From: a virus | Lineage: Duplodnaviria; Caudoviricetes | Direction: 5' to 3' (one strand) | DNA: 64,000 nucleotides | Virus record (IMG/VR): IMGVR_UViG_3300034104_001007 | Coordinates: 739 to 64,738 of that record | Translations under genes and position numbers: made by a program | Shown: piece by piece, positions 1,216 through 59,858 of the stretch | Layout of the letters: each line of letters opens with the position of its first letter | Numbering within the stretch: the stretch's first letter is position 1 | Notes under the pieces: model-generated | Told to the model about the DNA's origin: nothing | The model's input: the letters and a program-made list of their open reading frames with translations, nothing else | Databases searched by the model: none

Positions 1216-3144
1216 ATGCCATTACAGAAACTAGAATTTAGACCAGGATTAAACCGTGAAGGTACAGACTATGCCAATGAAGGCGGTTGGTACGACGGCG
1301 ACAAGATTCGTTTTCGTTCTGGTTTCCCTGAAAAGATTGGCGGCTGGTCACGCTTATCTAATGATACATACTTAGGTGTTGCCCGAGCATTATGGAATTG
1401 GCAGGCGCTTGACGGGTCAAACTACCTAGGTGTAGGCACTAACATTAAGTACTATATTGAAAAAGGTGGTCAGTATAATGACGTTACACCGTTCAGTTTT
1501 ATCAGTGCGGCCGGCGCCCCTGATTTTGCGGCCACTACAGGGTCGAGTATTCTTACAGTAACTGATGGTTCTTATAATCCAAGCGTTGGCGATTTTGTTG
1601 TGTTTAGTGCTGCTGTAACTCTAGGCGGAAACATCACCGCAGCTGTATTAAACCAAGAATACGCGGTACTTACTGTACCTACATCTACTACCTATACTAT
1701 ATCAGCGCGAAGCGCTACAACCGGTTTACCTGTACTTGCCAACGCTTCAGATGTTGGGGTTGGTGGTTCCGCCACCATTGCGTCTTATGAAGTACCTATT
1801 GGTTTAAATGTATATACACTAGGTGTAGGTTGGGGCGCAGGCCCTTGGAGTCGCGGTACTTGGGGGTCAGGTTATACCTCAGGTATTGGGCAACAACTTC
1901 GTTTATGGTCTAATGATAACTTTGGCCAAGACCTTGTTATTGCTCCTCGTGGGGGCAGTGTATATTACTGGAAAGCTTCATTAGGTGTATCTACTAGAGC
2001 AGTGTCACTAAATACTCTTTCTACTAATGAGGGGTATGCTGGAACCTATGTACCAAATACAACTAACCAAGTAGTAGCTTCCGCTATTCAAAAATTTGTT
2101 ATTGCTATGGGTGCTAATCCTTACCTTTCTGGAACCCCAAACACTCCGTTTAACCCAATGCTTGTTCGTTGGTCAGACCAACTTAATCCGTATGAATGGG
2201 TTCCAGCTATTACAAATCAGGCAGGTGAATTTGCGTTGACTAGCGGGTCATTTATTGTAGGCGCTAAGGCTACTCGTCAAGAGATTCTAATCTGGACTGA
2301 TTCCGCACTATATTCAATGCAGTATCTAGGTGCCCCCTATGTGTGGGGTTTTAATATCTTGATGGATAATATCTCTGTCATGTCACCTAATTCAATGATA
2401 ACTATAAACAACGTAACATACTGGATGGGCGATGACAAGTTCTATATGTATTCCGGCCGCGTAGAAACTTTACCTTGCGCATTACGTCAGTATGTATTTA
2501 ACGATATAAACAAAGACCAATCATTCCAAGTGTTTGCTGGGGGTAACGAAGGCTACAACGAAGTCTGGTGGTTCTACGTAAGTAACTCAAGTGGTGGAAC
2601 TACAGTTGATAAGTATGTAATTTATAACTACGTTGACCGTGTCTGGTACTATGGTTCTATGTCTCGCAGTGCATGGCTAGATTCAGGCATTCGTCAGTAC
2701 CCTATGGCAGCAGATTATAATACCCGGGTTCTTTACCATGAGTCTTCTGTCGATGATAACGCAGGGGATACTAGCCTACCTATTAATGCATATGTACAGT
2801 CTTCTGACTTTGATATCGGGGACGGACACAATTTTGGCTTCGTGTGGCGCATACTACCAGACGTAAACTTTAATGGCTCTAATGTAAATCAACCGTCTGT
2901 AACTATGACTGTTAAACCACGAGTCAACTCAGGTTCTCCCTACGGCGCGGCTAATAACCCGTTAGTGCGAAGTGCAGATAACTTTAGTACAGGTCAGGTG
3001 TATAACATTCAAGAATTTACAGGACAAGTATATACTCGCATACGAGGTCGTCAGATGGCATTTAGAATTGAATCGTCAGACCTCGGAGTGTCTTGGCAAC
3101 TAGGTATGCCTCGTATTGATATTAGACCAGATGGACGTAGATAA
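1216..3144 (+). CDS. virion tail tubular / DNA-stabilisation protein (P22 gp10-like)
   Basis: MPLQKLEFRPG...GWYDGDKIRFRSGFPEKIGGW start, VRWSDQ motif, RIDIRPDGRR end, typical of podovirus tail nozzle proteins. Confidence 0.7.
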   Translation: MPLQKLEFRPGLNREGTDYANEGGWYDGDKIRFRSGFPEKIGGWSRLSNDTYLGVARALWNWQALDGSNYLGVGTNIKYYIEKGGQYNDVTPFSFISAAGAPDFAATTGSSILTVTDGSYNPSVGDFVVFSAAVTLGGNITAAVLNQEYAVLTVPTSTTYTISARSATTGLPVLANASDVGVGGSATIASYEVPIGLNVYTLGVGWGAGPWSRGTWGSGYTSGIGQQLRLWSNDNFGQDLVIAPRGGSVYYWKASLGVSTRAVSLNTLSTNEGYAGTYVPNTTNQVVASAIQKFVIAMGANPYLSGTPNTPFNPMLVRWSDQLNPYEWVPAITNQAGEFALTSGSFIVGAKATRQEILIWTDSALYSMQYLGAPYVWGFNILMDNISVMSPNSMITINNVTYWMGDDKFYMYSGRVETLPCALRQYVFNDINKDQSFQVFAGGNEGYNEVWWFYVSNSSGGTTVDKYVIYNYVDRVWYYGSMSRSAWLDSGIRQYPMAADYNTRVLYHESSVDDNAGDTSLPINAYVQSSDFDIGDGHNFGFVWRILPDVNFNGSNVNQPSVTMTVKPRVNSGSPYGAANNPLVRSADNFSTGQVYNIQEFTGQVYTRIRGRQMAFRIESSDLGVSWQLGMPRIDIRPDGRR

Positions 3145-6255: not shown

Positions 6256-6678
6256 ATGGAGATTTCAATCGTACCTGTCGAGCATATCGACAGTGTTTGG
6301 CCTTCGGTAGAGCAATATTTAAAAGGCGCTGCCGATTACACTTACGGTAGGTTTACCGTTGAGGATATAAAAAATAGGTTATATACAGCGCCTCAACAGT
6401 TGTGGATAGCTTATGACGAAGAAATTGTATATGGGGCGGTTGTAACTGAGATAACTCAGTATCCTCAAATGCGTACTTTGGTTATGCATTTTACTGGTGG
6501 GGTAGAGTTACCTAAGTGGAAAAACGAAATGCTACAAATGCTGCAACGATTTGCTAAAGACCAAAGATGTAGCGTTATAGAAAGTTATGGCCGTATTGGC
6601 TGGGAAAAAGTATTTAAAAATGACGGGTTTAAATCGAGGTTCATGTTTTATGAGCTTCCTGTGGAGAAAGAAGTATGA
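6256..6678 (+). CDS. GNAT-like fold hypothetical protein
   Basis: QQLWIAY...GAVVTEITQYP...FAKDQRCSVIESYGRIGW, like the acetyltransferase-like genes that precede ejection proteins. Confidence 0.5.
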   Translation: MEISIVPVEHIDSVWPSVEQYLKGAADYTYGRFTVEDIKNRLYTAPQQLWIAYDEEIVYGAVVTEITQYPQMRTLVMHFTGGVELPKWKNEMLQMLQRFAKDQRCSVIESYGRIGWEKVFKNDGFKSRFMFYELPVEKEV

Positions 6679-9485
6679 GATATAATCATCTAGATATGTT
6701 ACCTGAAGAGGCATTCCAAAAAGTTGGAAAGTCTATAAAACTATACGGTAAAGGTGGAGGTACCACTCAGTCTACAGGTACCACATATACAACTAACGTA
6801 CCAGAATATGCTCAGCCGTATGTTGAGACGATGTTGGGTGCAACCCAAAAACAACTATTTAATATGACCCCAGCAGGGGAAATAACTGGTTTTCAACCCT
6901 ACATACCATATAGCACAAACGCACAAGACTACGTTGCTGGGTTCTCCCCCATGCAACAACAATCTTTCCAAGGCGCGGCTAACTTACAGACTCCAGGTCA
7001 ATTTGCAGGTGCCACAGACTTAGCAGGTGCAGCGGGTTTAGGTTCATTAGGTGCAGCTGGACAAGCCGCTAACTTAGGGCAACAAGCAACTAACGTAGGT
7101 TTAGGCGGTTTAGGTTATGGTGCTATGGGGGCTGATTACGGTGCTTTAGGTGCTCAACAAGGTCAACAAGCTGCGGGTTACGGGGCTATGGGTGCGGGCT
7201 ACGGGGCTCAAGCAGGTCAAGCTGGTGCTAACTTTGCTCAACAAGCGACTAACCCTAACGCTGTTCAAGCGTACATGAACCCATACTTACAAGCTTCTCT
7301 TGCCCCTCAAATAGATACGATGCGCCGTCAGTATGGCATTACTGGTACTAAACAACAAGGGCAAGCAACTCAAGCCGGTGCGTTCGGTGGCACTCGTGAA
7401 GCACTTATGGCGGCTGAAAATAATATGGCTATGAATGCTGCTATAGACCAAGCCATTGCTCAAGGGTACAACACTGCGTTCCAAAACGCTCAGCAGCAAC
7501 AACAGTTCGGTGCTAACTTGGGTCTACAGGGTCAACAAGCTGCTATGCAAGGTGCCGGTATGGGTATTCAGGGTCAACAAGCAGCAATGCAGGGTGCTGG
7601 TATGGGTATGCAAGGTGCTCAAACAGGCTTACAAGGTGTTGGTACCGCTCTACAAGGTTATGGCCAAGGCCAACAAGGTCTCAATACAGCCCTACAAGGT
7701 TTAGGTCAGGCTGGTCAAGCTGCAGGTACATTGGGTCAGTTAGGTACTCAACAACTAGGTGCGCAAAAAGATATTATTGGTCTTCAAAGTCAGCTAGGCG
7801 CACAACAACAAGCGCAACAACAAAATATGATTAACCAATCTATCCAAGACTACGCTACACAACAACAATACCCAATGATGCAACTAGGTATGATGTCTAA
7901 TATGTTGCGCGGTTTACCTATGCAAGGCGTTACAACTCAGTCTTACCAAGCTACTCCTAATGCATTAACTCAAGGTATCGGTGCACTTGGTACAGGCTTA
8001 GCGCTATCTAACGCGCTAGGCGGCGGTAAGGCAGCAGGTGGCGAGATTAAGTCTTATGCTAAAGGTGGGATTACTTCATACGATATTGGTGGCGAAGTTA
8101 AAAACGATTTATACGACTACTCTCCAGAAAAGTTAAAAGAAGTTATTAAATCATCACAAAGTGAGACTGTTCGTAAAATAGCTAAAGAAGTATTGCAGGA
8201 TAAAAGCCAAAGCTTTGCTCCCGGTGGCATCATTGCGTTTAAAGCGGGTGATAAAGTAGAAGAAGAGAACCCTGACTATGGTAATTTTCTCGGTGATGTA
8301 GTTTATGCCGCAAGCGAATTAGACCCAATTAAATATATATCTGGTCAAGGTAAACGGCTTGGTGAAAGAGCTGTAGAAGGTGCGGGCGTAGCAAAAGGCA
8401 TTGCTGATAAGTTAGTTACAGGTGCAGGATATAAAACACCAGCACCAGCAGCACAGCCACAATTAAATGGCCCTTATGCACCAAATGTAGACCCTGCAGT
8501 AGTTGCAGATAAACAAGCGCAGTTGTTAAAAGCTAGAATGGCCGCAGAAAAACCAGCTAAAGAAAAACCAGTGGGCCCACCGCCAGAAAACGCGGCTCCT
8601 GCTCAATCAGCAGCTTACATGCCATCAGAGCAAACTACCGCAGCAGGTATATTGGCAGGTGCACCTCAATCTATTCAAGACTACATGAATAAAAATCCTG
8701 ATACAGGTGAGACAGTAGCGCAGCTTGCAGCAAAACGTCAGCTCGAAAAAGAAGCGTTCTTAGGTCCCGATACCGCAGGTGCTGAATACCGTAAATCAAT
8801 TATGGCTCAAAAAGCCAATGCTAAAGACGAAGCTGAACGATTACAACAAATGCGTCTAGCTGAATTCTTTGCTACATGGGGTTCAACTCCTGGCCCTACT
8901 TTGGTTGCAGGTATGGAAGCAGCGAAGAAAACTATCCCTAATATAATCGCTGATAAAGCCGACCAGAAGAAAGCAGCTGCAGAATTAGATAAAATTATCT
9001 ATGGTTTAGACCATGCAACTCGCTTAGAGAAAGCAGGCAACTGGGAAGAAGCAGCTAAAGAGAAAGAAGCGCTAGCTAAAGCCTCACAAACATGGGGCGG
9101 TAAATGGATGGACTTAGCTGCACAAGCTTCTCAAAATGCCACCTCATTACAACGTGAAGAGATGTCTAATAAGAGTGCGGAAAAACGTCAAGCAATGGGC
9201 GATAGGGCACAGATTGAAGCAGCAGGAATAAGAGCATCAGCCGATAAAACCGAGCAAAACGCGTTGAAAGCACAATCTATTTGGTCTTCTGTGTATAATA
9301 GTGCTTTAGGTAAATACTCAGCGATTGACCCTGAAACCGCAGATGAAAAAGCAACCGCAGCTGCGGATGCAGCATTAACACCAGCACAACGCGAAACATT
9401 AGGTAGGGGAGCTACTTCATCAGGCCCAACTACAGGAAGTGTTGTGATGGATAAGTCAGGGAAAAAAGTCTGGCAGCAACACTAA
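6675..9485 (+). CDS. internal virion / DNA ejection protein
   Basis: Gln/Gly/Ala-rich repeats, YMNPY and AGAFGGTR motifs, coiled-coil C-terminus. Confidence 0.75.
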   Translation: MRYNHLDMLPEEAFQKVGKSIKLYGKGGGTTQSTGTTYTTNVPEYAQPYVETMLGATQKQLFNMTPAGEITGFQPYIPYSTNAQDYVAGFSPMQQQSFQGAANLQTPGQFAGATDLAGAAGLGSLGAAGQAANLGQQATNVGLGGLGYGAMGADYGALGAQQGQQAAGYGAMGAGYGAQAGQAGANFAQQATNPNAVQAYMNPYLQASLAPQIDTMRRQYGITGTKQQGQATQAGAFGGTREALMAAENNMAMNAAIDQAIAQGYNTAFQNAQQQQQFGANLGLQGQQAAMQGAGMGIQGQQAAMQGAGMGMQGAQTGLQGVGTALQGYGQGQQGLNTALQGLGQAGQAAGTLGQLGTQQLGAQKDIIGLQSQLGAQQQAQQQNMINQSIQDYATQQQYPMMQLGMMSNMLRGLPMQGVTTQSYQATPNALTQGIGALGTGLALSNALGGGKAAGGEIKSYAKGGITSYDIGGEVKNDLYDYSPEKLKEVIKSSQSETVRKIAKEVLQDKSQSFAPGGIIAFKAGDKVEEENPDYGNFLGDVVYAASELDPIKYISGQGKRLGERAVEGAGVAKGIADKLVTGAGYKTPAPAAQPQLNGPYAPNVDPAVVADKQAQLLKARMAAEKPAKEKPVGPPPENAAPAQSAAYMPSEQTTAAGILAGAPQSIQDYMNKNPDTGETVAQLAAKRQLEKEAFLGPDTAGAEYRKSIMAQKANAKDEAERLQQMRLAEFFATWGSTPGPTLVAGMEAAKKTIPNIIADKADQKKAAAELDKIIYGLDHATRLEKAGNWEEAAKEKEALAKASQTWGGKWMDLAAQASQNATSLQREEMSNKSAEKRQAMGDRAQIEAAGIRASADKTEQNALKAQSIWSSVYNSALGKYSAIDPETADEKATAAADAALTPAQRETLGRGATSSGPTTGSVVMDKSGKKVWQQH

Positions 9486-9501: not shown

Positions 9502-12500
9502 ATGCAACCAGTAGAAATTCCTGGAGTCGGTACTGTTCACTTTCCAGATAATATGTCCGATGCTGATATTGGGCGTGTAATCGAAAAGCAAATTATTCCG
9601 CAACATCAAGCTGCTCAAAAAGAGCATGAAAAGAAAACCGGGTTTGTTGCAGCTACTAAGGCTGGTTTTTATAGTTCATTAGGCGCAGCTGAACGGGCTA
9701 TTGGCGAAGCAACTGGTAGCAATAAGCTCAAACAATTAGCTAAAGAAAATGAGCTAAAAGCCCAAACTACATTTGAGCCAACAACCGAAGAAGATGTAGC
9801 TAATGCCCAAGGCGTGATGTCAACTGCGGCCAAATGGTTACGCAAAAACATAGCTGAGCCCGGTGGTGGTATCGTCGGTGGTTATGGTATACCTATTGCT
9901 GCAGCCCCTATTGCAGCTGCTATTGCCCCTGAAGCTGTTGGTGGCGCTGCATTAGCAGGATTAGCCGGTGAAGAATTATTAGCTGCTACTGCAGCACGGG
10001 CTGCTGCAAACGAGGCCCGTAAACGTTTAGTTGGTGCAGCTGCATCATCCACTATCGCAGCCCCTGCCGAGATGGGTTATAACATCCAAGCCCAAGAACA
10101 AGCACATCCAAACGAAGCAATTAATTTAACTGCCGCAGCCCTATCAGCTATTCCCCAAGCTGCGTTAGTTGGTTTTGGTATGCCCGGAACAAGCTACATT
10201 AATAAATTAGTGCCACAACTGGCGCCGATTGCAGAAAAGACACTGGTTCCAAAAGTTCTATCTGGTGAGCTTACGCGCGAAGAAGCCGCAGCCCAGCTAG
10301 CTGGTAAACTCCCACAATATCTAAGAGCCATGGCTGCGAATACGGCTGCTGGTACTGGCATGATGGTTGGTACTGAGACTATCCGCCGTGCGCAAGCTGG
10401 TCAAGACATGATGAGCTTAGGTGAAGTAGGTGAGGCAGCAAAAACAGCAGGTCTATTATCCCCATTCTTTGCAGCTATGCATGGTTCAGACCGTGGTGTG
10501 GCAGAAGGAAAACTAACCGCAGCATCCGAGCAGCGTGCAGCACAACTGCGCCAAGAACAAGATGCGATTGATATAGCGGAACAACGAGCTGCTGACTTAG
10601 AAGGGTTGCGCCAGTTGGATGTGACCTATGCAAAAGTCTACGAAGAGCTTGGTGCAAGGAAAGAACAGACTGCCAGCTTATTAAAAGAAACTAAGTTAGC
10701 CGAACGCATCGGTAAATCAATTGAAGACCATCCTGATATTCAAGCGTTAAATACCCTTGAAGGTACTAAAGCATTCCTTAAAGATTTAAAAGCTAATAAG
10801 AACTATACTGAAGAAGAGAAGCAAGCACTACGCCCACAACTCCAACAGTACATGCAGAAGTTCAAACAAAAAGACACTTCCTATAACAAACTAAATGAAG
10901 AGCAACAAAAATACGTAGGTCAGATTGAAGCGCTTGAAGACTTGCGTGAGATTGGTGTACCTACTACAGCTAAGTTATTAGATGTGCCACTTGAAGAATT
11001 ACAAGCAATGCGTCAGACAGTTGATGAGAAAGCCGCGGACAGCTCCACACCTAAACGCGACATCAACAAGCTTGACCACATGGCAACACTAATTGCTGAT
11101 GCTATCGCAAATCATCCTACGACTGTAAACGCGGCTAAAGCCGCTCAACGCATTGCCGATGAAGCTGATTTTAATCGTGTACTTGAAAGAAAACATGCGG
11201 AAGAAGCGGCGTTAACCAAAGCACAAATCGCTGAAAATGAGCAACGAATCAAGTTAGCTTCATTGAAAACACCTGAGTTACGTAAAGCATACTTAGAAGA
11301 CCAAGCCCGCCAAGAAGCCGCAAGAACTAAAGAAATCCCTGCAGAGCCCAAGCTTACCGCTGAACAAAAAATGGCGCAGTTGGAAACTACACTGCCAGAA
11401 GGCATCAATCGCGAAGATTTTAGAGCGCAACAGCTAGCTGAAGAAGCACGATATAAAGCAGAACAGCAACAACTTGAAGCCGATAAGTTCTATTTGGAAC
11501 GCCAAAAACCGCCAAGAAATGAAGTGGTTAAACCAATTGAGGAGCCTGTAAATGAGCCGACTATCAACGATGTCAAAGGACAAGGAAACCTCTTCACCCC
11601 AAGAACAGGAAAACCCACAGCCGAAGCCATGCGTGGTAATGAAAGTGGACCAGTCGGTGGTGTCGCTGAGCGACCAAGAAGTGAGTCAGGCGTGGAAGTG
11701 CCTGCAGGACAACCAGCTGCCGTTGTCCCCAAAACTGGAAGAGCTGGAGCAGGAGCACTGGGAGATGTTGCTGGAGTACCTGTTAGAAACGCAGGACGAG
11801 ATAAAGGAAATGTGGCTGCAGAAAAGGTTACATTAAAAGAAGCTATTGCAAATCGCATGAACGATATCTTTGGTATAGCCAGAGAGATGCATAAAAATGA
11901 TGTTGTACTTCCTGAAGAACTATCCGATATGCTTCACGAGTTAAGGGCTAACCCACCTAAAGCAGCAGAGTTTGCTGATTGGGCTGCCAATGTAGAAGCT
12001 CGCGTTAAAGAAGCTAAAGCATATATTAAAAGTACTACAAAAGAATCGGTTAAAAAATCCATTGAAAAAGATACAGATGTACAGAAAAAAGCGGCTGAAG
12101 TACATACACTAAAAAAATTAGATGCTGATTCAGAACAAGCAATAAAAGACCTTCAAGATGCTGTCTATGGTCCTGAAGGTATTATGGAATCAAAAGGCAA
12201 ACGTAAAGGCGAGCGCGCACCTAAAGAAGCTAAAGAGCCTACGACCGTTGATGCGATGGAGCAAACAATTAAAGATTGGTTTAATCCAGTATGGTTGGCT
12301 CGCGCGCTTAAGAATGGCTCAGTGCGTATTTCGGAATCTATTGCTAATACAGACTTACCTGAAAAAACTAAAGCCGAATTTGATAAGAGTAAGGCTCTAT
12401 ACTTTGGTCGTGACGGTTCAATCTACTTCTTCACAGACAACATTCCTAAAGGAAATGAGCTAGGGGTTATCTTACATGAGATTGGTGAGCATAAAGGTCT

Positions 12501-15500
12501 TGATAACTTAATAGGAAAAGACCGTGTAACAATGATGTCAAACCGTGTTCGTGATATGGCTACTGGTAAAGGTGGTAAGTTAGACGTCATTATTGCTAAG
12601 AAAGCTTTAAAACGCATTGAGGGTATGGAGGGTGAGAAGGCTAATAAAGAACTAATTGCATACTTCGCTGAGATTGCTGTCAATGAACATAAGATTATTC
12701 CGGGCGGTAAAACTGAAGAACCATCCAAGCTAACTAAGACTTGGATTACAAACCTATGGAACTCTATCAACAAAGCGCTAGAGAAACTCCACCTGAATAT
12801 TAAAGACTTCAGTGCACAAGATTTGGTTGATGTAGTGCATGGTGCAGCCCGTTTAGAAATGGGTCGTGAAGGTGAGATGGGTCCGCGTAATCAGAAGTTT
12901 GATTCACAGTCTAAACTATCCGAAGCTGAAGAAGCCGCAATGAAGGCCAAGGGGTACACTGTATTTAAGACCCCACCAAAAGAAACCTTTGCTCAGTCCA
13001 TGAAAAACTATGCTAATGCCGACACAGGTAAATTGCGTGGGATGTTGGATACTATCGGCAACAAGATGGTTGGTCCTTTGTTCTCAGCACACCGCAAGGC
13101 CAACGCATACTACGGACCTGAAAGTTTCTACACCAAGACTACTAACAAGATTCGCGGCACGATGTTAATGCAGCATACCCTGAACTCAATGAACTTTATC
13201 ATTCAGGCTATGAAAGAAGGTTATGTTCGTATAGACAATAAAGGTTTCTTTGATGTAGCCATTGATAAGGTTAACAACATTCCTCAGCTAGCGGTTAAAT
13301 GGAAAGCTATCGATAACGCTATGAAAGCCAAAGGCATGTCTGACGGTATGGTTGAACAAGCTAAAAAGACTATGGCTTACGCTGACCGTTATAAAGAACT
13401 TAAAGATAAGAACATCAAAACACCAGCTGAATTTACTGATGCGTCATACAAATGGGGTAAAGAACTTCAGAGAGAGTATGCTGCGGAGTTTAAAGAGTGG
13501 CGTGATATGTACAACGTGATTCGTAAAAATAACCGCGAAACGCTTATTAAATCAGGTTTGAAAACTGCTAAAGAAGCAGACGAATGGTTAGACCGTGCAG
13601 AGTACTTGCCTTTATATCGTATCACAGAGAGCGAGGGTATGGACGCGGTATTCATGAACAACTTAACTGCCGCTGTACGCGAACAAAAATTGGGATTTAA
13701 AACAGAAGAATTTGATGTTGGCGACCCAATGGAGAACATTGTTAAGAATCAAATGTGGTTAGGTCAACGGATGATGCGCAACCATACTGCATTACGTTTA
13801 GCTGAAGAGTTTAGTGAGGTTGGTCTTGGTCGTTGGGTTAAAGGCGGTCAAGCTAATGGCAAGAATGTATTCTCCGTTCTTAAAGACGGTGTGGTTGAGC
13901 ACTTTCAAGTAGATAACCCTAACGATGCGGCAGTCTTTATCTCTGCTCCAGTATTCCAAAGTGGTGCACTAAACATAGCTCGTGCTGTTACCGGTACATT
14001 ACGCCGTGGTGTTACTATTACTCCATCGTTTGCGTACCGTCAGATGTGGGCCGATGCTGAGCGTACATGGATGCAGTCAGGTGGTCAACATAGCTTTGCA
14101 AAAACAGTAGCGTCATCTATTAGCCATCAAGGTAAGAACTTATTAAATGATTCTGAGAAAGCTAAAGAGCTAGCTCGTCACGGTATTGTTGGTCAAGTGG
14201 ATATTCAAGAAGGTTTTGACCGCATGGTTCAGCATTTGATGGGTACGCACAATGACACATGGCTAGGTAAAGCAGAGTCTGTACTTGAGCGCGGTGAGCG
14301 CATAGCCCGAAACAGTGACTTATCAGCTCGTGCTACTGTGTATGATTCAGTGGTTGCGCAGGGTATGAAAGAAGGTCGCACGGATTTAGACGTGCTTAGA
14401 AAAGAAGCGGCGCTTCGTGCACAGATGATGATTAACTTTAATCACAAAGGTACTTCTGCGTTTGCTCGTATGATGATGTCTTCAGTACCGTTTATTAACG
14501 CGCGTATTCAATCTGACTGGCGTTTAGTAGATGCATTGAAGGGTAACATCCCGGGTATTACAAAAGAACAAGCACGTAAAATGCTTGCAATGAAGGTAGG
14601 TAAGTTCGCCACATTTACCGCTGTATATGCGATGGCCCGTAGCGGTGACGATGATTATGAAAATGCAAATGATGAAGTCCGCAATCGTAACTTCCTAATC
14701 AATGCTGGTGGTGTACCATTAAAAATACCTGTCGCACCTGAGTACTTAGCACTTAAGGCAGCATCTGAACATACCTATAGGTTGTTAACAGACCAAGAGT
14801 TTGAGGATGGTGAGAAAGCGCGTAAAGCGATTGGTGCTGGATTACGTAACATGCTAATCACTCCAACAGACATGATGCCTACAATCGTGACGCCTATGAT
14901 AGAGAACATAACTAATTACTCGTTCTTTAATGACCGCGCGTTGGTAAGTCCTACACTACAAAACTTGCCAGCCAATGAGCAGTATGTTGAAGGTCAATCA
15001 TCTGAAGCCGCTAAGTATATAAGTAATCTCGGTATGGATATGTTTGGCGATTCATTCAGCCCAATTAAGATTGACAACGTACTCCGTGGCACCCTTGGTA
15101 CTGTGGGTCAAGATGCTATGTTCTTAACTAACTGGATTGCAGGTAGTGTATCAGGTGAAGAGCGCCCCGACGTTAAGTTAAATCAAATCCCTGAGCTTGG
15201 CGCGGCATTCTATGATACCGAAGGTAGCCAACGTAAAAACGATTACTATGATTTACGTAATAAAATAATGCCAATCCATCAAGCACTATTGAAGTATCGT
15301 AGTGAAGGGGATTATGAAAGAGCAAGAGAGTATCAAAAAGAGCATGCGGCTGAACTGCGCCTTGTTCCACAACTTAATGCGATTAACAATCAACTTGAGA
15401 TTACTCGTAAAGCTAAACATCGTATCATGAGCCCAACTAGTACATTGACTGGTGCAGAGAAACGCGAAGCGTTGGATAAGATTGCTGAGAGAGAAAGAAA

Positions 15501-15552
15501 TCTAATTAACAATCGTATCGTTAAAATGAAAGACCAATTAGAAGAGGAATAA
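9502..15552 (+). CDS. giant internal virion protein (polyvalent type: zincin-like HExxxH domain plus LPD38-like C-terminus)
   Basis: 2016 aa; LGVILHEIGEHKGL; C-terminal LKIPVAPE...ENITNYSFF...SPIKIDNVLRGTLG resembling LPD38. Confidence 0.7.
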   Translation: MQPVEIPGVGTVHFPDNMSDADIGRVIEKQIIPQHQAAQKEHEKKTGFVAATKAGFYSSLGAAERAIGEATGSNKLKQLAKENELKAQTTFEPTTEEDVANAQGVMSTAAKWLRKNIAEPGGGIVGGYGIPIAAAPIAAAIAPEAVGGAALAGLAGEELLAATAARAAANEARKRLVGAAASSTIAAPAEMGYNIQAQEQAHPNEAINLTAAALSAIPQAALVGFGMPGTSYINKLVPQLAPIAEKTLVPKVLSGELTREEAAAQLAGKLPQYLRAMAANTAAGTGMMVGTETIRRAQAGQDMMSLGEVGEAAKTAGLLSPFFAAMHGSDRGVAEGKLTAASEQRAAQLRQEQDAIDIAEQRAADLEGLRQLDVTYAKVYEELGARKEQTASLLKETKLAERIGKSIEDHPDIQALNTLEGTKAFLKDLKANKNYTEEEKQALRPQLQQYMQKFKQKDTSYNKLNEEQQKYVGQIEALEDLREIGVPTTAKLLDVPLEELQAMRQTVDEKAADSSTPKRDINKLDHMATLIADAIANHPTTVNAAKAAQRIADEADFNRVLERKHAEEAALTKAQIAENEQRIKLASLKTPELRKAYLEDQARQEAARTKEIPAEPKLTAEQKMAQLETTLPEGINREDFRAQQLAEEARYKAEQQQLEADKFYLERQKPPRNEVVKPIEEPVNEPTINDVKGQGNLFTPRTGKPTAEAMRGNESGPVGGVAERPRSESGVEVPAGQPAAVVPKTGRAGAGALGDVAGVPVRNAGRDKGNVAAEKVTLKEAIANRMNDIFGIAREMHKNDVVLPEELSDMLHELRANPPKAAEFADWAANVEARVKEAKAYIKSTTKESVKKSIEKDTDVQKKAAEVHTLKKLDADSEQAIKDLQDAVYGPEGIMESKGKRKGERAPKEAKEPTTVDAMEQTIKDWFNPVWLARALKNGSVRISESIANTDLPEKTKAEFDKSKALYFGRDGSIYFFTDNIPKGNELGVILHEIGEHKGLDNLIGKDRVTMMSNRVRDMATGKGGKLDVIIAKKALKRIEGMEGEKANKELIAYFAEIAVNEHKIIPGGKTEEPSKLTKTWITNLWNSINKALEKLHLNIKDFSAQDLVDVVHGAARLEMGREGEMGPRNQKFDSQSKLSEAEEAAMKAKGYTVFKTPPKETFAQSMKNYANADTGKLRGMLDTIGNKMVGPLFSAHRKANAYYGPESFYTKTTNKIRGTMLMQHTLNSMNFIIQAMKEGYVRIDNKGFFDVAIDKVNNIPQLAVKWKAIDNAMKAKGMSDGMVEQAKKTMAYADRYKELKDKNIKTPAEFTDASYKWGKELQREYAAEFKEWRDMYNVIRKNNRETLIKSGLKTAKEADEWLDRAEYLPLYRITESEGMDAVFMNNLTAAVREQKLGFKTEEFDVGDPMENIVKNQMWLGQRMMRNHTALRLAEEFSEVGLGRWVKGGQANGKNVFSVLKDGVVEHFQVDNPNDAAVFISAPVFQSGALNIARAVTGTLRRGVTITPSFAYRQMWADAERTWMQSGGQHSFAKTVASSISHQGKNLLNDSEKAKELARHGIVGQVDIQEGFDRMVQHLMGTHNDTWLGKAESVLERGERIARNSDLSARATVYDSVVAQGMKEGRTDLDVLRKEAALRAQMMINFNHKGTSAFARMMMSSVPFINARIQSDWRLVDALKGNIPGITKEQARKMLAMKVGKFATFTAVYAMARSGDDDYENANDEVRNRNFLINAGGVPLKIPVAPEYLALKAASEHTYRLLTDQEFEDGEKARKAIGAGLRNMLITPTDMMPTIVTPMIENITNYSFFNDRALVSPTLQNLPANEQYVEGQSSEAAKYISNLGMDMFGDSFSPIKIDNVLRGTLGTVGQDAMFLTNWIAGSVSGEERPDVKLNQIPELGAAFYDTEGSQRKNDYYDLRNKIMPIHQALLKYRSEGDYERAREYQKEHAAELRLVPQLNAINNQLEITRKAKHRIMSPTSTLTGAEKREALDKIAERERNLINNRIVKMKDQLEEE

Positions 15553-19216: not shown

Positions 19217-20152
19217 TTATTCGTCCCATTCGTCAATGAGAGAAGCAAGTTCTGTTTTCTCTACTAACGGTGGGGCTTCCTTCTCGACCTTGACAGGCTC
19301 CTCAATCACTGAATCTTCCTCATGGATTTCAGGTGCTGGGGTTGGTTTTGGTTCTGCTTTCTTAGTTGCTGGTGGTGCAATTACTTGTTGTGCTACTGGT
19401 GCAGGTGCAAACTCTTGCTTATCTTTCACACCATCTACTTGTGAAACTGTCATAGTAATAGCGCGCAATGCTGAATCAGATTTACCTTGTGCAACACTGA
19501 TGTTGTACTCGGCTTCTTCTAATGGGCGAATGCCACGGAATACTAACTTAGGTGTAGCTGATGCTGTATCGAAACGCATCTCGGTAACTACTGCACTGAT
19601 TGGCATTTTCAATGCACCGATAGATTGTGCATAGGCTTGCATAGGTAGTTTTTGACCGTCTACACCCTTACCAAAGATTGAAGTGGATGGTAATGACAAC
19701 TGATACACATCACCGCTCAAATCACCTTCTAATATAACTGCAAGGCGTTGGGTATAACGACAAGCACGGCTTTCACCTTGACCTGAACCCTTGATGTTTT
19801 TCTCGCATGACATACAAGTATTAGCTTGTGGGTCTACTACATCTGCATTTGGTTTAGTACCGTCAGCTGACCAGCATGAAGGACCTTTTGGCGCAGCTTC
19901 TGAATCATATGTACCTTCGTAGTATGTACGACCTAGTGGTGATGAGGCTACGATAACTACATTCATAGCGCGCTCTTCATTAACCATTAGCTCTTCGCCA
20001 TTAACCAACATGCGGAACACACCGCCCTTGATTGAAATACGTTTGCTACCGCTACCACTGTTACCTGCTAAGTTCTTGGTGGTTGCATCTAACTCAATAC
20101 CTTTTAAGTATGATGGTAAGTTGCTACCTTGAAATATCGCCATGTTACTCAT
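19217..20152 (-). CDS. conserved replication-module protein (putative ssDNA-binding)
   Basis: RISIKGGVFR...CWSADG...CxxC, acidic C-terminal tail LIDEWDE; lies between helicase and primase. Confidence 0.6.
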   Translation of the reverse strand: MSNMAIFQGSNLPSYLKGIELDATTKNLAGNSGSGSKRISIKGGVFRMLVNGEELMVNEERAMNVVIVASSPLGRTYYEGTYDSEAAPKGPSCWSADGTKPNADVVDPQANTCMSCEKNIKGSGQGESRACRYTQRLAVILEGDLSGDVYQLSLPSTSIFGKGVDGQKLPMQAYAQSIGALKMPISAVVTEMRFDTASATPKLVFRGIRPLEEAEYNISVAQGKSDSALRAITMTVSQVDGVKDKQEFAPAPVAQQVIAPPATKKAEPKPTPAPEIHEEDSVIEEPVKVEKEAPPLVEKTELASLIDEWDE

Positions 20153-20483
20153 TTGTTTCCCCTTCGTTGTGATTATAAATTGCTTCTACTGCATCCCCGT
20201 ATGTTTCAACTAGCGTTCTTTTTTCCATACGCTTCTTTGCTTCTGTATGTGCCAAAGTTTGTATCTCCACCATTACGTCATGGGGTAATTCGTTATCCAT
20301 AGTAAAATCTAACACATCAAAACTATTGTTCATGTATGACTCTAATGATGTCTTACGAATACGGAAACCATTCCCAATTTTCTTAGCAGGGATTTCACCT
20401 GTATTAATAAGCTTGTACAACAACTTAGTTGAGATTTTTAAAAACTGTGCGGCACCTTGCGCCGTTAGAATTTCGTCACTCAT
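20145..20483 (-). CDS. excisionase-family HTH DNA-binding protein
   Basis: ILTAQGAAQFLKISTKLLYKLINTGEIPAKKIGNGFRI, an HTH_17-type pattern. Confidence 0.8.
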   Translation of the reverse strand: MSDEILTAQGAAQFLKISTKLLYKLINTGEIPAKKIGNGFRIRKTSLESYMNNSFDVLDFTMDNELPHDVMVEIQTLAHTEAKKRMEKRTLVETYGDAVEAIYNHNEGETNE

Positions 20484-48661: not shown

Positions 48662-49576
48662 ATGGCTATTTCACGCGCACAGCTCCTTAAAGAGCTACTA
48701 CCAGGTCTTAACGCATTATTCGGTTTAGAATATGCCCGTTACGGTCAAGAACACGAAGAGATTTACGAAACTGAATCTTCAGAGCGTTCATTCGAAGAAG
48801 AAACAAAATTGTCTGGCTTCTCAGCCGCACCTGTTAAAAACGAGGGTTCTGCCATCGCTTATGACAATGCTCAAGAAGCTTGGACTGCTCGCTACAACCA
48901 CGAAACAATCGCGTTAGGCTTCAGCTTAACCGAAGAGGCTATTGAAGATAACTTGTATGACTCATTGTCTGCTCGTTATACAAAAGGCTTGGCTCGTGCT
49001 ATGGCATACACCAAACAAGTTAAAGCCGCAGCTGTATTAAACAACGGTTTCAACACCTCTGGTTCATACAACGGCGGTGATGGTGTTCCATTGTTCTCTG
49101 CTTCACATCCACTTGTTGCAGGTGGCAATAATAGTAACATCCCATCAACCCCAGCAGACTTGAACGAGACTTCTCTAGAAGCAGCCGTAATTCAAATCGC
49201 AGCTTGGACTGATGAGCGTGGTCTATTGATTGCAGCTAAACCGAAGAAATTGGTTGTTCCACCAGCATTGCAATTCGTTGCTACTCGCTTGTTGGAAACT
49301 GAACTTCGTGTTGGTACTGCTGACAATGACATCAACGCCATCAAGAATAACGGTTCTGTAGCCGAAGGTTACACAATCAATCACTTCTTGACTGACACAA
49401 ATGCATGGTTCTTAACTACTGACGTGCCAAACGGTATGAAACACTTCGTTCGTACCCCATTGCAAAACTCAATGGATGGTGACTTCGATACAGGTAACGT
49501 TCGCTACAAATCTCGTGAGCGTTATTCATTCGGTTGGTCTGACCCATTAGGTATGTACGGTTCAGCTGGTGCTTAA
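48662..49576 (+). CDS. major capsid protein (Mu gpT-like)
   Basis: MAISRAQLLKELLPGLNALFGLEY...DFDTGNVRYKSRERYSFGWSDP; strong codon bias; followed by a terminator. Confidence 0.92.
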   Translation: MAISRAQLLKELLPGLNALFGLEYARYGQEHEEIYETESSERSFEEETKLSGFSAAPVKNEGSAIAYDNAQEAWTARYNHETIALGFSLTEEAIEDNLYDSLSARYTKGLARAMAYTKQVKAAAVLNNGFNTSGSYNGGDGVPLFSASHPLVAGGNNSNIPSTPADLNETSLEAAVIQIAAWTDERGLLIAAKPKKLVVPPALQFVATRLLETELRVGTADNDINAIKNNGSVAEGYTINHFLTDTNAWFLTTDVPNGMKHFVRTPLQNSMDGDFDTGNVRYKSRERYSFGWSDPLGMYGSAGA

Positions 49577-49596
49577 TAAACACTAGGTAAGATAAG

Positions 49597-49618
49597 AGGG
49601 AGCTTCGGCTCCCTTTTT
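49597..49618 (+). terminator. intrinsic terminator after the major capsid gene
   Basis: AGGGAGC-TTCG-GCTCCCT-TTTT. Confidence 0.9.
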
Positions 49619-49632
49619 AATGGTTTTCTGTA

Positions 49633-49660
49633 TTGCATCATGTTTATAAAAGCGCAGAAT
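49633..49660 (+). promoter_or_regulatory. putative promoter of pqqA
   Basis: TTGCAT-16nt-CAGAAT just after the capsid terminator. Confidence 0.4.
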
Positions 49661-49712
49661 GTGTACATGTGCACATCAATGTGTACACTCAATCGACTTA
49701 AGGAGATTCATC

Positions 49713-49784
49713 ATGTGGACAACACCAGCAGCTACAGAAATGCGTTTTGGCTTTGAAGTAACTATGTACGTAATGAACAAATAG
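49713..49784 (+). CDS. pqqA: pyrroloquinoline quinone precursor peptide PqqA
   Basis: MWTTPAATEMRFGFEVTMYVMNK (23 aa) with the E-x-x-x-Y core (EVTMY); AAGGAGA RBS at 49700; too short for the ORF track. Confidence 0.95.
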   Translation: MWTTPAATEMRFGFEVTMYVMNK

Positions 49785-49804
49785 TCTAAACATTTGTTTA
49801 AACA

Positions 49805-49894
49805 TAGGCGGTTAAGCCGACACTAGAGGATGTAGTAAGTAACGAGTTTTTCGGCTTTCTGCGTTACATGTAACAACTACCAAATCTACGCCTA
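49805..49894. ncRNA. candidate pseudoknotted structured RNA between pqqA and the HNH gene
   Basis: Four nested stems plus a crossing 7-bp AAGCCGA/TCGGCTT pairing. Confidence 0.55.
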
Positions 49895-50263
49895 CCTTTC
49901 TGTAATTTGTTCTGCTTTCAATTGACGTTCTTCGTGATGGTGTTTGCGATGGCAATTGGCGCATAGTACTATGCATTTGGCTTCTATTTCTTCACGGGCT
50001 ATCTTGTAGGCTCCGTTTTGTACTAATTCACTTATTTTTCTATTGGCCGGGTCTGGCACTACATGATGAAAATCTAATGCTGATGGATGGTTCTCTCCGC
50101 AGTTGGCACAAGCAAGTGTAGATTTATAGGCTTCCCATTGGATTCTTTTCTTTATCTTACCTAATCTAACTCGTTCAATCTGTGCAGGCTTGTTATCTTC
50201 ATAATGTTTCTTAGAATATAGCTTTGCTTTTGCCTTGCGAACAGCTGGGTCTTTGTATGGCAT
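49892..50263 (-). CDS. HNH endonuclease
   Basis: CANCG...LDFHH...CIVLCANCHRKHH; GGAG RBS; start set at ATG 50263; antisense within the late operon. Confidence 0.88.
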   Translation of the reverse strand: MPYKDPAVRKAKAKLYSKKHYEDNKPAQIERVRLGKIKKRIQWEAYKSTLACANCGENHPSALDFHHVVPDPANRKISELVQNGAYKIAREEIEAKCIVLCANCHRKHHHEERQLKAEQITER

Positions 50264-50281
50264 GAATACTCCATTAATTAG

Positions 50282-50310
50282 TTGACACTTAAACAATAAC
50301 ATAGTATAAA
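50282..50310 (+). promoter_or_regulatory. sigma70-type promoter restarting late transcription
   Basis: TTGACA-17nt-TATAAA. Confidence 0.7.
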
Positions 50311-50321
50311 TGCCATATCAA

Positions 50322-50398
50322 CCGGGAATATTAAATCCGGCCCATTAGACTGTCCCGGCAGACGCATACAAGACTAATGAGCTTACTTTGTATGGAGA
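50322..50398 (+). ncRNA. candidate pseudoknotted 5' leader RNA
   Basis: Three interleaved helices, the last abutting the RBS; three AGAC motifs. Confidence 0.45.
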
Positions 50399-59014: not shown

Positions 59015-59328
59015 TGGCAAAAGATATGAAAATAATCTGCCCTATGATGGGTGGAAAACCTTGTGTTGAAGATGGAACAATTATAGATGGTGAATTAGTG
59101 GCTTGCCGATTTTGGGTTTCAGTTCAAGGAATGAATCCACAAACAGGTGAAATTACAAATAATAATGATTGTTCTTTTGCTTGGATTCCTATTTTAATGA
59201 TTGAAAACAGCAAAGTTAATCGTGAAACAGGTGCGGCAGTTGAATCATTTAGGAATGAAATGGTTAAAAATAATGATTTAAATACAAAAGTTTTAATTGC
59301 AACGGCAAATAAAAATTTAATAGAATGA
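59014..59328 (+). CDS. tail fibre-associated small protein
   Basis: Cys-rich; ETGAAVESFRNEMV motif; coupled to the fibre gene. Confidence 0.65.
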   Translation: MAKDMKIICPMMGGKPCVEDGTIIDGELVACRFWVSVQGMNPQTGEITNNNDCSFAWIPILMIENSKVNRETGAAVESFRNEMVKNNDLNTKVLIATANKNLIE

Positions 59329-59858
59329 TATACGAATTTCCAAATTATATTGATGATGAAACTATTGAATATATTAAACAACAAGTTTATCCAACAATTG
59401 ATTACACAAAAAAGAAAACATATAACAGAACAGGGCAAACCGTTCCAATTAACGAAGATGAAAAACATCCTGAATTAGATTTAAAATTGTTTAGTATTTT
59501 TTCAAAAATACAAAAAGATATAGCGCAAGATTTATTTAATCCGCAATTTGAATCAGGTGATAGTGGTTATGAATTCCATAGATATAATCCAAATGAAACT
59601 TGCGACAAACATTCAGACGGTGAAGTAGTTTGTGGTTTATTAAGATATGCAACTGTAATAATTTTTTTAAATACAGTAAATCAAGGTGGCGAATTAGTAT
59701 TTGATAGATTAAATAAAAAGGTAAAGCCCGAAAAAGGAAAATTAGTTTTATTTCCACCATACGGAATGTTTGAACATTACACTTTACCATCCCCTGAAAC
59801 TAGGGAAATAATAATGACATGGTTTGTTTATAACAATGTTAATGTAAATTTTTTGTAA
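59325..59858 (+). CDS. 2OG-Fe(II) oxygenase (prolyl-4-hydroxylase-like)
   Basis: HSD...IIFLNTV.QGGEL.F...LFPP...H...R jelly-roll motif; AT-rich. Confidence 0.85.
   Translation: MIYEFPNYIDDETIEYIKQQVYPTIDYTKKKTYNRTGQTVPINEDEKHPELDLKLFSIFSKIQKDIAQDLFNPQFESGDSGYEFHRYNPNETCDKHSDGEVVCGLLRYATVIIFLNTVNQGGELVFDRLNKKVKPEKGKLVLFPPYGMFEHYTLPSPETREIIMTWFVYNNVNVNFL

Follow-up and report, generated by a model that had tools for sequence, protein, structure and literature searches.

A stand-alone pqqA gene in a freshwater phage genome as a probable auxiliary metabolic gene for host PQQ synthesis

A phage genome recovered from metagenomic DNA carries, directly behind its major capsid gene, a self-contained pqqA gene that in our assessment is, with a probability of about 0.77, an auxiliary metabolic gene (AMG) feeding PQQ synthesis in the host. 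This reading is built on comparative analysis of the gene, of its counterparts in other phages and in bacteria, and of the regulatory DNA in front of it. The window, by which we mean the whole stretch of DNA that was analysed (64,000 nucleotides), covers bases 739-64738 of a linear, 64,738-bp IMG/VR virus record with a CheckV completeness of 100%. Viral pqqA was already published in 2020, and the gene described here is a further instance; the promoter box shared by phage and host copies of pqqA is new here.

Results

The phage genome and the surroundings of pqqA

A PHROG profile search of 63 ORFs identified a large terminase, a portal and a major head protein, along with a DNA polymerase, a primase/helicase, a helicase, an exonuclease, an endolysin, tail fibres and several HNH endonucleases. 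The search gave no integrase match in these 63 ORFs, only a small excisionase-like HTH gene at 20145-20483, and the window yielded no tRNAs and no Rfam families. The pqqA gene has the capsid gene upstream, HNH, structural and tail genes downstream, and a homologue in the putative host, the setting by which an AMG is recognised. An 8-kb stretch around it occurs in lake-water and freshwater metagenome runs, with 0.99-1.00 of the sampled words present in five runs and at least half in 13 runs; five of these 13 may be the source of the record.

The features around the gene are as follows.

48662-49576, + strand: major capsid gene, 304 aa (PHROG major head protein phrog_371, E 1.7e-22)
49594-49617, + strand: intrinsic terminator of the capsid gene, a 10-pair stem with 5 G-C pairs, a 4-nt loop and a T run
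49618-49634, + strand: "pqqA box" TAATGGTTTTCTGTATT, putative regulator site centred near -42, the top viral-motif match in the window
49633-49638, + strand: weak -35-like hexamer TTGCAT, with a 16-nt spacer to CAGAAT
49655-49660, + strand: putative -10 hexamer CAGAAT, 37 nt after the start of the box
49661-49688, + strand: 5′ leader stem-loop with a 10-bp stem, present in both the MFE and the centroid fold
49700-49706, + strand: Shine-Dalgarno sequence AAGGAGA, read from the sequence, six bases before the ATG at 49713
49713-49784, + strand: pqqA, 23 codons plus TAG, encoding MWTTPAATEMRFGFEVTMYVMNK, with PF08042 and TIGR02107 matches
49892-50302, - strand: HNH endonuclease gene (PHROG HNH endonuclease, E 3.4e-21), between pqqA and the next late gene

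Compared with the capsid genes of Pelagibacter phage HTVC023P and phage 023Pt_psg01, that of the window shows about 65% nucleotide identity. The HNH gene is an optional insertion that lies outside the function of pqqA: in one relative (L049) the capsid gene, pqqA and a homologue of orf 50388 follow one another with no space for an HNH gene, and one contig of run X23 fuses 49894 to 50335 and skips it. HNH homologues lie near pqqA in four of the 120 viral loci among the matches listed (L053, L093, L105 and L052). As a free-standing homing endonuclease, the product of this gene could carry the adjoining pqqA between co-infecting phages.

Two further observations concern other parts of the genome. 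A 2016-aa ORF at 9502-15552 (+ strand) and the 936-aa ORF preceding it at 6675-9485 had no PHROG match at E 1e-5, and they probably encode large virion or injected proteins of a podovirus-like lineage. Among the tail genes, a 2OG-Fe(II) oxygenase-like gene at 59325-59858 (+ strand; phrog_61, E 1.9e-22) is a candidate for a second auxiliary gene.

Identity of the gene and its product

A preliminary description of this DNA, made from its letters and ORF translations, had proposed a capsid terminator followed by an AAGGAGA ribosome-binding site and a 23-codon ORF for PqqA, with pqqBCDE missing from the window. Terminator, ribosome-binding site and ORF were all found where the feature list places them, and the assignment to PqqA was confirmed by both curated models: the peptide scored 40.3 bits against PF08042 (cut-off 21.1, E 3e-10) and 38.8 bits against TIGR02107 (cut-off 20). 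The 64,738-bp record contains no other PqqA match, and the 14 control genomes all stayed below the cut-off. The absence of the other genes held as well, since tblastn with pqqB-E was negative in the window; models of pqqE and pqqC matched nowhere in the whole 64,738-bp record.

The 23-aa peptide, within the length of about 20-30 residues usual for PqqA, contains W2, P5 and E15-V-T-M-Y19, so that both the expected Glu-X3-Tyr and the N-terminal W-x-x-P leader are there; Glu15 and Tyr19 form the E-x3-Y pair from which PQQ is known to be built. The ORF caller opened the frame at an earlier ATG (49659), giving 41 aa. This extension falls within the promoter and leader and lacks a ribosome-binding site, and relatives do not conserve it: their in-frame translation upstream of the pqqA start differs or stops immediately. 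The conserved product is therefore the 23-codon form. AAGGAGA was the commonest 7-mer upstream of pqqA in both the viral and the host sets of matches listed.

Host copies of pqqA

A search of genome_contigs with the longer pattern EMRFGFEVTMY returned at least 125 host loci, a non-random sample. Nearly all were titled Methylotenera, Methylophilus, Methylobacillus, Methylovorus, Ca. Methylopumilus, Methylophilaceae or a coarser betaproteobacterial label, and one of the listed loci was an "Acidovorax" MAG. The peptide of the window, which the preliminary description had assigned to the Methylophilaceae, proved to be the commonest host form, with 52 of 128 distinct host copies identical to it among the matches listed; the best DNA identity to a listed host copy was 70/72.

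The window gene is not at the head of a pqqBCDE operon, and neither is such a position a defining trait of the host family: pqqB-E were found in the flanks of 26 of the 125 listed host loci (flanks of up to 2 kb for 80 loci and shorter for the rest), and in Ca. Methylopumilus universalis all three pqqA copies are orphans far from pqqCE. Three host genomes carried 3, 4 and 7 copies of pqqA compared with a single pqqC and pqqE, and the available text of Beck et al. (2014; PMC4109929) gives 3-12 pqqA copies per genome for the Methylophilaceae. A freshwater member of the Methylophilaceae is thus the likely host of the phage, an assignment that the sequences support well.

pqqA in other phages and viral contigs

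The preliminary description had suggested a tblastn search of phage records, and the search recovered orphan pqqA genes from cultured Methylophilales phages. When the window peptide was compared with 50,697 phage records, 12 matched. Phage P19250A encodes a peptide 100% identical to it and a spring-water Caudoviricetes genome one of 95.7% identity; MEP301 and Venkman follow with 91.3%, MEP401 and MEP402 with 82.6% and four Melnitz isolates with 72.7%. Orphan pqqA is thus present in 10 GenBank records of cultured Methylophilales phages, which fall into six types, and in one spring metagenome phage; these are the only true phage matches among the 50,697 records. Two matches labelled "Acinetobacter phage MD-2021a" were dropped as a bacterial pqqABCDE contig rather than phage DNA. 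There was no tblastn match to MEP431-434, HIM624-A or Venkman EXVC038S, whose presence in the searched collection is uncertain.

All of these phage records leave pqqA unannotated. Nothing is annotated at the gene in P19250A, Venkman, MEP301 and MEP401; in Melnitz (MZ577097.1; L006, locus 2961-3056) and in the spring phage (MW202481.1; L007, locus 2067-2195) an opposite-strand "hypothetical protein" is annotated over it. The flanks are unrelated between phage types, and DNA similarity extends across the ribosome-binding site and the ORF and no further. Across the GenBank phages the core EMRFGFEVTMY is invariant despite many synonymous changes.

In IMG/VR, a degenerate DNA pattern for GFEVTMY retrieved at least 120 loci, again a non-random sample. 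Each of the 120 matches listed contained a true PqqA ORF. Together they encode 52 distinct peptides, the commonest of which is that of the window (21 of the 120 listed), and all 120 are complete peptides ending at a stop, one of them with two ambiguous residues. No pqqB-E were found in the flanks of these 120 listed loci (up to 2 kb of flank for 80 and about 300 bp for the rest). In 17 of the 120, a capsid gene product 74-91% identical at the amino acid level lies directly upstream of pqqA. Since these loci keep the order of capsid gene and pqqA, the junction is no assembly artefact and the position of pqqA is old within the lineage. One of the viral loci (L101) shares 71/72 nt with the window pqqA and has the same upstream leader.

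Two members of the lineage (L025 and L031), whose capsid proteins are 74-79% identical to that of the window, carry a different PqqA allele at the same place and lack the Methylophilaceae box. This suggests that the lineage may swap its PqqA allele to suit another PQQ-making host; in a sample of 401 genomes from the class to which Ca. Methylopumilus universalis belongs, no host of that allele was found.

A promoter box in front of viral and host pqqA

The preliminary description had also placed a candidate promoter just after the capsid terminator. This was borne out in part: a sigma-70 consensus scan called no promoter upstream of pqqA, but comparative data back a box and a -10 hexamer at this place. 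De novo EM on 111 viral upstream regions of the matches listed returned the motif TAATGATTTTC..TA, with an information content of 12.8 and a log-likelihood of 495, compared with 47 for shuffles. When the 64-kb window was scanned on both strands with this motif, the 17-bp site at 49618-49634 scored 18.1 bits and the runner-up 15.0; because this site tops the whole window, the box is not a general promoter element of the phage.

Some 120-135 nt ahead of the start codon of host pqqA genes among the matches listed stands a palindrome of the type TCATGA-AAA-TCATGA, and EM on 120 listed host upstream regions gave a motif of 16 bits with a log-likelihood of 812 (48 for shuffles). The viral motif resembles this palindrome and may be related to it. 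Sites above the 99th percentile of shuffles were found in 78 of 111 viral and 102 of 120 host upstream regions among the matches listed; in a crosswise comparison of the same sets, the viral matrix passed on 96 of the 120 host regions and the host matrix on 37 of the 111 viral regions. In the viral set, a -10-like hexamer lies at +36 to +38 from the box in 52 of the 78 listed regions that have a box, while other non-overlapping 3-nt windows hold such hexamers in 3-24 of them. The main host box, centred near -64, precedes the -10 by 59-61 nt in 99 of 102 listed cases, with a weaker repeat visible by eye about 23 nt downstream, and relative to the main host box the phage box is thus shifted towards the -10 by about 22 nt. 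Because the host matrix recognises 37 of the 111 viral regions and the spacing differs, we infer, rather than observe, that the two boxes are equivalent and that the same factor may bind both.

The box also turned up in phages outside the motif training, upstream of pqqA in five of six GenBank phage types. In P19250A, MEP301, Melnitz and the spring phage no other site of the 5-6 kb locus scored higher, and Venkman had a good match to the host matrix upstream of pqqA; in MEP401 no box was found upstream of the gene. The ORF is kept without the box in MEP401/402 and in the L025/L031 lineage.

Seven exact copies of the palindrome are spread over three Methylophilaceae genomes, six of them before pqqA, and a reversed control gave none. 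With up to one mismatch allowed, Ca. Methylopumilus has six intergenic sites, which precede pqqA (two), pqqB and the genes for rhodopsin, cytochrome b561 and an M48 peptidase. In Ca. Methylopumilus universalis (G001), one-mismatch boxes stand 78-128 nt upstream of the pqqB, bacteriorhodopsin-like, cytochrome b561 and M48 peptidase genes (L272, L273, L274 and L277). This set hints at what may be a small energy-related regulon. The box resembles the Fur-type palindrome; a Fur reading was not adopted, as none of the six Ca. Methylopumilus sites precedes an iron-uptake gene. Ge et al. reportedly studied pqqA promoters of Methylovorus in 2015. In the portions of the literature on pqqA promoters and on Methylophilaceae pqqA that were surveyed, the box is not described.

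One contig from the genome_contigs set (L236), 69/72 nt identical to the window pqqA, has the layout of the phage copies in front of its pqqA: a terminator-like T run, then TTCATGGTTTTCT and then a close -10 hexamer. This MAG contig may derive from a phage and have been binned with bacterial sequence.

The leader and RNA contigs

The leader stem-loop of the window gene starts directly after the -10 hexamer, at or beside the presumed transcript start. Leaders of 42 viral homologues, which differ in sequence, fold better than dinucleotide shuffles (mean z -2.95; z < -1.64 in 81%), which suggests that the 5′ stem-loop may stabilise a short, heavily used mRNA. The whole 246-nt region folds no better than shuffles (z 0.23), and the 5′ hairpin is its one notable structure. 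No terminator was called after the window pqqA.

Four metatranscriptome runs contain a small share of the 8-kb stretch. The assembled RNA contigs over pqqA, from two runs, carry foreign flanks and therefore come from other pqqA loci; such contigs show neither transcript starts nor strand nor level. Run X21 has a high summed depth at the pqqA bin, with loose ends at 49701, 49710, 49713 and 49783 that mark other pqqA loci.

Selection on viral pqqA and alternative explanations

Among 101 distinct 72-nt viral coding sequences of the matches listed, pN/pS was 0.27 when computed in codons outside the constraint of the search pattern. Arg11 is invariant through five codons, and W2 and P5 are invariant as well. 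On this comparison, viral pqqA is under purifying selection.

These data bear first on the alternative that survives best, namely that the cassette serves the phage in some way other than by supplying precursor: numerous box copies on phage DNA as it replicates might titrate the host regulator, surplus peptide might occupy PqqD or PqqE, or the small, stable, highly translated RNA might itself act. The box and leader hairpin are conserved together with the ORF, as such roles would lead one to expect, but selection acts on the protein, with synonymous turnover at invariant residues, and MEP401/402 and the L025/L031 lineage retain the ORF where the box is gone. The peptide, moreover, is identical to the host substrate and is not an enzyme-blocking variant. 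We consider this explanation unlikely.

Somewhat less probable still is that pqqA was picked up from host DNA not long ago as a moron and is carried along neutrally, of no benefit to the phage. The gene is tiny, its protein is identical to that of the host and its DNA matches listed host copies at up to 70/72 nt, and the adjoining HNH homing endonuclease could move flanking DNA between phages. A chance capture sits poorly, however, with the presence of pqqA in unrelated phage types with unrelated flanks and in all 120 listed IMG/VR matches, with a place that is kept across capsid divergence down to 74% aa identity, and with ORFs that are complete in 120 of 120 listed cases and under purifying selection.

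That the pqqA sequence is an attachment or recombination site, for integrating into or recombining with a host pqqA locus, we regard as very improbable. Small conserved genes are common integration targets and the hosts offer 3-12 copies, yet the 63 ORFs include an excisionase-like HTH gene and no integrase, and the nucleotide similarity is confined to the ribosome-binding site and ORF and broken by synonymous differences (70/72 at best among the listed copies). What the phage has kept is a complete ORF with its own promoter, not a 3′ fragment.

That the viral contig is chimeric or contaminated with host DNA, a concern for any metagenome assembly around so conserved and multi-copy a repeat as pqqA, can practically be dismissed, given phage genes on both sides, 17 other listed contigs with the same junction, a relative with 71/72 nt and the same leader (L101), at least half of the words of the 8-kb stretch in 13 runs, and cultured, sequenced isolates that carry pqqA.

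Discussion

We favour precursor supply to the host as the role of the phage pqqA. In the established PQQ pathway, the PqqA peptide is bound by PqqD and cross-linked by PqqE, after which PqqF, PqqB and PqqC trim and oxidise it; one peptide is consumed per cofactor. If the phage gene works as we propose, host RNA polymerase would transcribe the cassette, aided by a putative host factor that recognises the box, and read-through from the late operon may add transcript. The phage peptide would then be bound by host PqqD, cross-linked at Glu15-Tyr19 by host PqqE, and trimmed and oxidised to PQQ by host PqqF/B/C, with export likewise left to the host. The amplification of pqqA in the hosts' own genomes suggests that precursor supply limits their PQQ output. 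Because the peptide is consumed one to one and host genomes hold 3-12 copies of pqqA to a single pqqBCDE set, further copies on phage DNA as it replicates could maintain or raise this supply, and PQQ-dependent methanol dehydrogenase, and hence energy, would be sustained during infection. The OM43 media of one study contain added PQQ (PMC9004378).

A more tentative proposal, to which we give slightly less than an even chance, is that the phage cassettes are wired into an undescribed host regulon through the box, as the site of a Methylophilaceae transcription factor. The same factor would control the host pqqA copies and pqqB, and possibly rhodopsin and cytochrome b561 in Ca. Methylopumilus, and phages would have shifted the box to about -42, the usual spot for an activator that touches RNA polymerase. 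If this were so, the phage copy would be switched on by a host signal of cofactor demand or energy, and the conservation of the box in unrelated phages would offer a handle for finding the regulator. The available text of one article calls the regulation of PQQ biosynthesis unclear (PMC9851590), and the promoter box shared by host and phage would be an entry point to it in the Methylophilaceae.

At 72 bp for a single consumable part of a pathway, pqqA is about the smallest type of metabolic gene that a phage can carry, and it has been overlooked by gene callers as well as in the GenBank entries of those cultured methylophages in which it occurs. Being so tiny and overlooked, it could serve as an inexpensive marker by which to recognise, in viromes from fresh and coastal waters, phages of methanol-oxidising Methylophilaceae.

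The closest published case is PqqA in the Lake Baikal viral population VP_266, for which the same role was proposed (Coutinho et al., 2020; 10.1101/2020.04.02.019802; PMC7678222); an earlier guess that viral pqqA might already have been noted in metagenomes was thereby borne out. As far as the available text of that study goes, VP_266 is likewise a freshwater phage with a predicted methylotroph host, and its pqqA was read as an AMG for methanol oxidation. The same text reports that VP_139 and VP_266 also encode methanol dehydrogenase and that VP_139 has radical SAM proteins, whereas the window phage, whose capsid is akin to that of pelagiphage HTVC023P, has pqqA alone. Neither a promoter box nor a leader is described for the Baikal phages in that portion of the study.

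Cultured methylophages offer a second comparison. In P19250A, Venkman, MEP301, MEP401/402 and Melnitz, pqqA likewise stands alone with its own ribosome-binding site and a peptide 72.7-100% identical to ours, and in P19250A, MEP301, Melnitz and Venkman the box is also found upstream. These phages are of unrelated types, in which pqqA has other neighbours such as recombination genes or tRNAs. The terms "pqq" and "pyrroloquinoline" are absent from the published descriptions of Venkman, MEP301 and MEP401/402, and the Melnitz paper mentions PQQ solely as a medium additive.

With the orphan pqqA genes of the Methylophilaceae, the phage gene shares a stand-alone unit of box, -10, structured leader, ribosome-binding site and 23-codon ORF, and in 52 of the 128 listed host copies the peptide itself. 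The units differ in spacing, since the main host box usually stands 59-61 nt from the -10, with a second, weaker repeat closer in, whereas the phage box usually lies 36-38 nt away, and in that host copies end in a strong terminator whereas none was called after the window pqqA.

Cyanophages that carry psbA encode a copy of a rapidly consumed host component and thereby sustain the energy supply during infection. The two genes have no sequence or mechanistic kinship, psbA encoding a protein subunit and pqqA a sacrificial cofactor substrate. By analogy, the phage pqqA would nevertheless follow the same logic, in which the phage provides the one consumable component of a host energy system and relies on the host for the machinery.
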